NCBI GenBank assembly: GCA_034104285.1
Contig: JAXEEC010000056.1
Coordinates: 84,439 to 148,438, forward strand
Direction: 5' to 3'
Length of the DNA: 64,000 bases
DNA from: Candidatus Onthovivens sp.
Lineage (GTDB): Bacteria > Bacillota_I > Bacilli_A > RFN20 > CAG-826
Part shown: piece after piece, positions 62,262 through 62,852 of the stretch
Numbering within the stretch: the stretch's first letter is position 1
Layout of the letters: each line of letters opens with the position of its first letter
The notes under the pieces: model-generated
What the model was told of the DNA's origin: nothing
The model's input: only the letters and a program-made list of their open reading frames with translations
Database searches by the model: none
Position numbers and translations under genes: made by a program

Positions 62262-62852
62262 TTATGAGTAATCTACTCCCCAAGTACAGCTATGTTTTCC
62301 ATTAGGAAAAAGAAAATCTGAATACCACTTTCCAGTACCAACACATTCTGTGTTTCTTATGGTTTGATTATTTTGATAACGTTCATCATTATAATTTGCA
62401 CTATTGTCATGTGCATTACATGTATAAGCTGGACTATATCCCGCGTGATGATTAGTATAAGCGGAAGGCTCTCCTTCCATTTTGTTTATCATATCAATAA
62501 CATTATCATATTCATTAGCATTAATTAAATCATCAGCAAGTGGTATTTCTAAATTATATATATCGTCTTTGCTTATCTTATCAGATAAAAAAGCACTTGT
62601 TTGTAATTTAAGTAAATAATTTTTTAATAAATTATGGGGGCTTTCTGTATTGCTTGTACTTTCACCTTCACCGACTGTTTGCGCTGAAACAATCTCAGTC
62701 TTAAAGGGAGTGCCGAGTTGCGCTCGAGCTGTAGATCCAGCATCATTGCCCGCATAGTGAGCCGCGCGCAGTTTCTCAAGCCTTTTAAATATATCATTAA
62801 AATTATTCGCATCGAAATCATAATCTCGATTTGGATAGTTTTTCTAAGCCAT
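62262..62852 (-). CDS. precursor-like protein 3: conserved N-domain + Tyr/Asn/Cys/His-rich tail; 1 in-frame TAG
   Basis: MA(TAG)KNYPNRDYDFDANNFNDIFKRLEKLRAAHYAGNDAGSTARAQ...HNLLKNYLLKLQTSAFL... Tail: AYTNHHAGYSPAYTCNAHDNSANYNDERYQNNQTIRNTECVGTGKWYSDFLFPNGKHSCTWGVDYS. The ORF-track piece 62262-62492 is its C-terminus. Confidence 0.55.

Follow-up and report, generated by a model that had tools for sequence, protein, structure and literature searches.

A recurrent phage gene cassette in which a head-and-repeat-tail protein precedes two putative radical-SAM enzymes

Introduction

Why gut phages of 100–200 kb should spend up to about 10 kb of their genomes on what looks like post-translational chemistry is the question raised by three gene modules in the window, by which we mean the whole 64,000-nucleotide stretch analysed here (contig JAXEEC010000056.1). 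In each module the gene for a protein of about 200 aa (P1, P2 or P3) is followed by genes for two proteins of ~420–490 aa (here rSAM-a and rSAM-b); in module 1 two small ORFs (148 and 105 aa, 24090–24850, minus strand) lie between P1 and rSAM-a. The original prediction, made from the letters of the window, saw in the three P proteins the leader-plus-variable-core logic of RiPP precursors. In bacteria, radical-SAM enzymes are already known to modify repeat peptides and proteins, which include RiPP natural products and, as has been known since 2026, an effector directed against phages. In the latter case, the HXS anti-phage system, HxsB and HxsC act with the small protein HxsD to mature the ~214-aa effector HxsA via its HxS repeats, and matured HxsA blocks phage DNA entry (Nat Commun 2026; PMC13128918).

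The window has a GC content of ~31% and nearly all of its genes are on the minus strand, and since its products include primase, helicase, ligase, gyrase-like, PhoH-like and endolysin-like proteins, it is part of a large phage genome. Its close relatives are viral contigs of 142–176 kb from human-gut metagenomes, and the cassette genes belong to a TAG-recoded human-gut phage of ~160–176 kb. The P, rSAM and accessory genes of the window given below are on the minus strand.

Results and discussion

A predicted helical head shared by the P proteins

The three precursor-like ORFs are real genes, all on the minus strand, and translation with TAG read as Gln gives 210 aa for P1 (24862–25494), 207 aa for P2 (55190–55813) and 196 aa for P3 (62262–62852). 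P3 is substrate-like in layout, with a helical N-domain of ~130 aa followed by a tail rich in Y, N, H, C and W, and an AAAGGAG ribosome-binding site lies ahead of its ATG. P2 is a paralogue of P3 with a tail rich in F, S, N, G, C and H, and P1 is a more remote relative that carries NTAGTTYSQT-type repeats and a Cys block. The N-domains of P2 and P3 can indeed be aligned, as had been claimed (34% identity over 128 aa, residues ~14–139, BLASTP E = 3e-20, far beyond chance), and their common part, hereafter called the head, is ~125 aa long. The similarity described as weaker for module 1 is not significant when P1 is compared pairwise with P2 or P3 (E = 0.15–0.78) and is weak in profile–profile comparison (hhalign) of the P1 family with the P2/P3 family (63%, E = 7e-5). 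A third set of heads from other phages, made up of 10 ORFs lying upstream of rSAM-a in loci with weak or no HMM matches and homologous at the profile level, matches both the P2/P3 family (97.5%, E = 7e-12) and the P1 family (95.8%, E = 8e-9), in each case colinearly and over the whole domain. Because this third set bridges the two families over their full length, P1, P2 and P3 can be placed in one head superfamily with P1 as a true, if remote, homologue.

An AlphaFold prediction based on an alignment of 44 sequences modelled most of residues 15–130 at pLDDT >90, as a helical bundle, and the tail at pLDDT <50 (a shallow alignment of eight sequences gave pLDDT 38 and was unusable). The predicted head fold had no specific structural relative, and P1–P3 had no match in Pfam, PHROGs, NCBIfam or PADLOC. 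When 44 members of the family were compared with Pfam and NCBIfam at E ≤ 1 nothing was found except for Hint/intein matches in four of them. Comparison with Nif11, NHLP and other RiPP leader families, which the original prediction had proposed, produced no match, for Nif11 and NHLP neither in sequence nor in fold, and no P member matched FxsA, HxsD or any other curated family either. When 1.84 billion representative proteins were searched with a profile, the P2/P3 family grew to 92 clusters.

The four exceptional members (P0059, P0061, P0080 and P0097; see also 7001–8002 of locus L009) end in a Hint/intein-like autoprocessing domain that starts with Cys directly after Tyr-rich repeats. This position suggests that the head is not a throw-away leader and that the head-plus-repeat unit is either the product itself or is ligated onward. 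In one locus the ORF upstream of rSAM-a (L020, 3606–4433), which did not match the P profiles at E ≤ 1e-4, appears by eye to have the reverse domain order, with F-S repeats (FSFPSSNF...) at the N-terminus and a head-like segment (ITWNDIVPIYNNINIINEKYG...) at the C-terminus; if that order is right its head would take the part of a 'follower' instead of a leader.

Tails built from short tandem repeats

As had been noticed, the tails of P1, P2 and P3 do not align with one another and have a common composition. The description of them as hypervariable holds in part, as they diverge faster than the heads (where the heads are 50–70% identical, tail identity is 34%, and shuffled tails give 24%), but they are far from random, being made of short tandem repeats whose sequence varies from lineage to lineage, and in the close relatives P0001 and P0003 the tail is better conserved (96%) than the head (88%). 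Repeat types in the P2/P3 family include (YSN)n, (YGSx)n, NFTSxAxxG, SGYRSGYNS and GNYGFNS, and those of the sister families include NGWSQGAxG, TNSTYSDTCD and a period-5 SNGTx. The TTYSE/TSYS repeats recorded for module 1 turn out to be part of a decapeptide, NTAGTTYSQT, that is found throughout the P1 family (T-T-Y-S-Q being repeated) together with a conserved Cys block, and the tandem TTNFSGHN of module 2 is encoded by a fresh 24-nt tandem duplication in the P2 gene (55412–55461).

Among 72 relatives from the P2/P3 family, F, Y, W and H together make up 22% of the tail as against 8% of the head, Cys makes up 3.6% as against 0.0%, and V, I, L and M make up 4% as against 23%. Distances from one aromatic residue to the next in these tails peak at 3 and 4, with mostly S, G, N or T at X2/X3, and a head–tail junction of the form E-x-x-C-(A/P)-N-(Y/C)-S is conserved in many members. 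Tail length varies from 50 to 350 aa. Neither aromatics nor Cys are universal in the superfamily: Cys is missing from several tails, which rules out Cys thioethers as a universal chemistry, and the tails in three loci (L039, L045 and L033) consist of period-5 SNGTx repeats with few aromatics, so that different clades may run different reactions. N-x-S/T triplets (NFT, NYS, NGT, NST) are abundant in many tails; the glycosylation sequon was rejected as a unifying feature since tails of the YGSx and SGYR types lack it.

Two putative radical-SAM enzymes beside each P gene

In module 3, rSAM-a (60999–62261, 420 aa, two in-frame TAG codons) has CxxxCxxC at residues 11–18 and no full SPASM region, and rSAM-b (59621–61018, 465 aa) has CxxxCxxC at residues 36–43 and a SPASM-type C-terminal region with seven invariant Cys. 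Their counterparts are of 448 aa (rSAM-a, 53838–55184) and 493 aa (rSAM-b, SPASM-type, 52391–53872) in module 2 and of 441 aa (rSAM-a, 22515–23840, one in-frame TAG) and 461 aa (rSAM-b, SPASM-type, 20823–22208) in module 1; the three a copies are homologous to each other, as are the three b copies. CxxxCxxC is invariant in eight a-type and six b-type sequences, the one exception being a b-type copy in L009 that lacks the first Cys, and the seven C-terminal Cys are invariant in the b type, consistent with SPASM. The Pfam Radical_SAM model is matched at 39.7 bits by rSAM-a of module 3 (cut-off 29.5) and at 15–27 bits by the other enzymes, and with CxxxCxxC inside a Radical_SAM domain both enzymes can be assigned by sequence to the radical SAM superfamily. 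Scores of the b-type proteins against TIGR04085 (SPASM) were 25.5, 26.2 and 18.9 bits (cut-off 27).

The curated families matched, all weakly, are PapB, QhpD, SCIFF, HxsB/C, YhhB, XyeB, DynA and anSME, every one of which is a peptide or protein maturase. The scores of 12–60 bits lie far below the cut-offs of these models (170–650 bits), which means that homology gives no guide to the chemistry; the best curated match of rSAM-b of module 1, for example, is PapB at 60 bits against a cut-off of 340. No RRE/PqqD domain was recognisable in rSAM-a or rSAM-b, and sequence searches of the PDB with rSAM-a, rSAM-b and the profile of the U32-like accessory family described below gave nothing significant.

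Gene order in unrelated phages

The loci collected from the P side comprised two modules in L001 together with L002–L014 and L049–L054, and those collected from the rSAM-b side numbered 34 (28 IMG/VR loci and six MAG contigs). In every locus with enough flank for the order to be seen (about 45, on more than 40 unrelated phage contigs) it was P, rSAM-a, rSAM-b (SPASM-type), which supports the proposed logic of a recognition domain and a variable core next to rSAM pairs; where the HMMs missed the upstream ORF a P-like protein was found on inspection. The ~1 kb spacer between P and rSAM-a is kept in all P1-type loci. The loci range in GC content from 20 to 59% (the latter in one contig) and include TAG-recoded, TGA-recoded (L009 and L013) and standard-code phages. 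Recurrence of the cassette in so many unrelated phages suggests that phages have a protein-crosslinking chemistry of their own. In TGA-recoded L009 (8025–12151 and 13392–15002) P is followed by two a-type rSAMs and the b-type copy without the first Cys; this is also the locus with a YcaO and a methyltransferase near the cassette, the YcaO downstream and the methyltransferase, with a third rSAM, upstream.

Modules 2 and 3 are 34% identical in P, 34% in rSAM-a and 45% in rSAM-b, and module 1 stands apart in P, rSAM-a and rSAM-b alike, which points to duplication of whole modules. A megablast search with 11 kb and a tblastn search with rSAM-b found no match among 50,697 GenBank phages, IMG/VR look-ups with the single distant P proteins P0058, P0078 and P0060 returned nothing, and the searchable literature on phage-encoded rSAM RiPPs contained no description of a P–a–b cassette.

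Accessory and neighbouring genes

Directly upstream of P2 is an ORF of 132 aa (55816–56214), and ORFs of 100–150 aa occupy the same position in five other loci without forming a single sequence cluster; neither these small upstream ORFs nor the accessory proteins gave anything convincing against Pfam. The 'IDHHHD' protein (56211–56933, 240 aa), with a weak UPF0489 match (E = 2.8e-4), may be a metal-dependent hydrolase and its family adjoins cassettes in five of the 28 loci. More frequent is a family of ~295-aa proteins, represented in the window by an accessory protein of 301 aa with three invariant Cys and weak similarity to Peptidase_U32 (51262–52167), which occurs in 15 of the 28 loci, mostly as a tandem pair, and has 26 relatives in 14 other loci. 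Four of 13 members match Peptidase_U32 weakly (best E = 1.3e-3), and the pairing recalls, speculatively, the O2-independent hydroxylases UbiU/UbiV. A Cys-rich accessory protein of 190 aa (50714–51286, three in-frame TAG codons) recurs in four loci. GT2 glycosyltransferases adjoin cassettes in seven of the 28 loci, often fused to an extra rSAM domain (L013, 4184–6316; L018, 146–2041 and 9511–11493; L031, 2252–4033; L010, 11699–12880), and as many tails are full of N-x-S/T it is conceivable that they glycosylate the tail. No protease or exporter was found in the cassettes examined in detail, namely the three modules of the window, L009, L010 and L013.

Other neighbours are more varied. Fibre-like genes (Laminin_G_3, BclA_C, VgrG3-like) are present near some loci, and an ORF of 372 aa that looks beta-helix-like by eye is found 2 kb from P1. 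Module 1 is followed directly downstream by an ORF of 86 aa (20326–20586, minus strand) and an endolysin-like gene (19335–20267, minus strand) that encodes a peptidoglycan-binding domain and contains three in-frame TAG codons, so module 1 may be co-expressed with lysis genes. A protein of 286 aa (57088–57948, minus strand) without a PHROG match has a signal peptide and a sortase-type anchor (C-terminal LPQTG, hydrophobic stretch and basic tail), and this may point to a Gram-positive host. The gene of an SPFH/band-7-like membrane protein that matches phrog_200 (33476–34348, minus strand) is directly followed, on the coding strand, by that of an 814-aa protein (30771–33215, minus strand) whose C-terminal region has a long coiled coil and which, again, has no PHROG match.

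Comparison with known systems

HXS is the closest functional precedent that we could find, by analogy of architecture and with homology not demonstrable. Both systems have two adjacent radical-SAM enzymes and a repeat protein of ~200 aa in one operon, and in both the functional part of that protein would be three-residue repeats that combine a (hetero)aromatic residue with Ser or the like (H-x-S in HXS, Y/F/H-x-S/N/G in P). A small partner protein is sometimes present at the phage cassettes, and phage rSAM-a matches HxsB and HxsC weakly. The differences are at least as clear. HXS comes from Pseudomonadota whereas the cassette is phage-encoded, so that the roles of phage and bacterium as gene host are reversed; the gene order is P-a-b instead of D-B-C-A; P has a new helical N-domain, with no signal-like N-terminus evident, in place of the peptidoglycan-binding domain of HXS; the phage repeats are neutral and Tyr/Phe-rich where those of HXS are basic and His-rich; and the phage genomes carry up to three paralogous copies. 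Membership of HXS is not supported by the enzymes (13–34 bits against 370 for TIGR03978, 14–19 bits against 268 for TIGR03977) or by P, since P1–P3 and 44 relatives have no Pfam domain other than Hint in four members and their repeats are Y/F-based.

Triceptides are defined by the motif aromatic-X-X (PMC11499958), and the systems that make them (XyeB, YhhB, HaaB, HtkB, GrrM/OscB, FxsB) resemble the phage cassette in having an rSAM(/SPASM) enzyme beside a precursor with this motif repeated. P tails have aromatics spaced 3–4 residues apart, the aromatic-X-X pattern being present in the P2/P3 and P1 families and absent from tails of the SNGTx type, and rSAM-a matches YhhB, XyeB, GrrM, AmcB and FxsB weakly. 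P is, however, three to five times longer than a triceptide precursor and includes a head of 125 aa that is folded, the phage cassette invariably has two enzymes, and some tails of the superfamily are without aromatics. Assignment of the phage rSAMs to a known cyclophane-synthase family is not supported by the scores for XyeB, YhhB, GrrM, AmcB and FxsB (12–27 bits against cut-offs of 310–450).

The thioether-forming SPASM maturases (PapB of the ranthipeptides, SCIFF, QhpD) resemble rSAM-b in their SPASM-type Cys pattern and provide its best curated matches, and Cys is confined to the tails of P; on the other hand rSAM-b reaches at most 60 bits against 340 and several P tails are Cys-free. QhpD is a precedent for the modification of a protein subunit (QhpC). 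With long-leader RiPPs (proteusins and those with Nif11 or NHLP leaders) P shares a large, conserved and probably structured N-region, a variable core and accompanying rSAM enzymes, but the heads are similar to neither Nif11 nor NHLP in sequence or fold, no epimerase-type rSAM is recognisable in the phage cassettes, and the genes are phage-borne.

A model for the cassette

From these observations we infer that P is probably the dedicated substrate of its own rSAM pair and that its tail is modified, most likely by aromatic (cyclophane-type) and/or Cys crosslinks. The strict synteny, the co-divergence of the module components, the invariant CxxxCxxC of both enzymes and their weak similarity to maturases, the tail composition, the contrast of pLDDT between head and tail, the faster divergence of the tails with the fresh duplication in P2, the HXS precedent and the recurrence of modifying enzymes all support this model, and a tail spacing of 3–4 with S, G, N or T at X2/X3 fits the triceptide motif. 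The conserved helical bundle would serve as a docking or scaffold domain in the role of a leader and the disordered repeat tail would be the part that is chemically modified. The most likely reaction is radical-mediated crosslinking. It would join aromatic residues to side chains by C–C bonds at aromatic-X-X, as in cyclophanes (triceptides), and/or form Cys thioethers through the SPASM-type enzyme, and such crosslinks would make a floppy tail rigid, protease-resistant and polycyclic. In some phages further steps might be carried out by accessory enzymes (the U32-like pair, the metal hydrolase, GT2, an extra rSAM or YcaO). What the cassette yields might, as with HxsA or QhpC, be a matured protein and not a RiPP peptide freed by cleavage, and possible roles for P are superinfection exclusion or action as an effector at the envelope, a structural element, or a released peptide. 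It should be noted that several facts pull against the substrate reading: the distance of the rSAMs from every curated maturase cut-off, the lack of a single residue class that explains all tails (few aromatics in SNGTx repeats, no Cys in others), the absence of RRE/PqqD from the enzymes and of protease and exporter from the cassettes examined in detail, and the fact that co-divergence of adjacent genes is expected from simple linkage too.

A bolder version, which we regard as doubtful though worth stating, is that the cassette is a multi-copy, phage-side counterpart of HXS, its paired rSAMs welding fast-evolving aromatic/Ser/Cys repeat tails into 'armoured' polycyclic domains on a new helical scaffold, late in infection through TAG gating, and that the product acts at the host envelope (for example in superinfection exclusion, or in targeting competitors or receptors). 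If this were true the three diverged modules and the fast-turnover tails would reflect an arms race, and in the Hint variants a C-terminal thioester would serve to join the matured protein to a second molecule.

The principal alternative is that P is a classical RiPP precursor, its ~125-aa N-domain being a long leader that is cleaved off and its modified tail, or fragments of it, being set free when the cell lyses, as a small bioactive peptide of the bacteriocin or signal kind. The RiPP logic of the original prediction survives to the extent that a recognition domain and a variable core lie beside rSAM and SPASM-type enzymes, as seen in the synteny and parallel divergence. Long structured leaders are known in proteusin, NHLP and Nif11 systems (PMC10858898), many members have the boundary motif E-x-x-C/P at the head–tail junction, and as a phage lyses the cell no exporter would be necessary. 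We nevertheless consider this alternative unlikely, because no protease was found in the modules of the window, L009, L010 or L013, the tails at 50–350 aa are much longer than typical RiPP cores, the heads lack homology to known leader families, and the Hint domain after the repeats in four members implies that the head-plus-repeat unit is processed at its C-terminus and that the head is not removed.

It is also conceivable, but in our judgement very unlikely, that P is an ordinary unmodified low-complexity protein (fibre, decoration, envelope-binding or adhesin) and that the rSAMs act on a nucleotide, a cofactor, tRNA or a host protein. Repeats rich in S, T, N and G are common in phage fibres and adhesins, fibre-like neighbours occur in some loci as does the beta-helix-like ORF near P1, and no rSAM substrate can be assigned by homology. 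Such a protein would not explain the strict adjacency of P, a and b in about 45 loci of very different phages, or the presence of three diverged enzyme pairs each beside its own diverged P, which would be pointless for a common small-molecule substrate; moreover the curated similarities of a and b are limited to peptide and protein maturases and P matches no PHROG structural family.

If P is the substrate of its rSAM pair, as we favour, what is new is a conserved, multi-copy rSAM/repeat-protein system that is carried by phages, with a new head domain, new enzyme clades and a multi-module organisation. Four new families are involved: a substrate family (which at 50% identity forms at least 92 clusters and has two sister families beside it), two rSAM clades and the recurrent U32-like accessory pair. 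Together they provide dozens of natural substrate/enzyme pairs with diverse repeats (YSN, YGSx, NFTS, SGYR, NGWSQ, SNGTx, NTAGTTYSQT) from which the chemistry of the enzymes might be found.

TAG recoding and the timing of expression

As had been predicted each P gene contains exactly one in-frame TAG (codon 3 in P3, 46 in P2 and 118 in P1), but this is a feature of the genome rather than of the P genes. In-frame TAG codons are present in ~17 long ORFs of the window, scattered over endolysin-like, PhoH-like, GIY-YIG-like and cassette genes (for example 8671–10400, 19335–20267, 25750–26616, 27477–28595 and 50714–51286), and no long ORF there depends on TAG for its termination. At codon 3 of P3 and codon 46 of P2 the TAG is kept as TAG in relatives, and codon 118 of P1 is TAG in the window and in L042 and a Gln codon in L040. 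On this conservation, and on the Gln codon in L040, the whole phage appears to read TAG as Gln, the in-frame TAGs of the P genes being part of that recoding. The spread over ~17 ORFs also fits a partial (late-gene?) recoding of TAG to Gln. The remaining alternative, that P1–P3 are pseudogenes, or ORFs that arose by chance, with a stop inside them, draws on the fact that under the standard code TAG breaks each of them, but it has a negligible chance of being right and is refuted by conservation: full-length homologues with conserved heads exist in dozens of metagenomes, the TAG is kept in place or replaced by a Gln codon, about 17 other ORFs of the window share the feature, and the ribosome-binding site of P3 is strong.

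Because of its in-frame TAG, synthesis of full-length P requires that TAG be decoded at the time, which is presumably the case late in infection, and the TAG codons may thus gate expression of the P genes to that stage; the cassette would then tie stop-codon recoding to the control of a protein-maturation pathway. At 41443–41517 (minus strand) ARAGORN located, and labelled tRNA-Pyl, a possible suppressor tRNA whose CUA anticodon would read the in-frame TAGs. It has a clean cloverleaf that is also its minimum-energy fold and a TTCAAGT T-loop, and it did not match the Rfam tRNA model even at E ≤ 1. Seven more phage tRNA genes (Pro, Leu, Thr, Gln, Ile, Ser and Gly) are found at 46101–47315, 59292–59381 and 63602–63675 on the minus strand, that for tRNA-Ser lying between modules 2 and 3 and adjoining rSAM-b of module 3.
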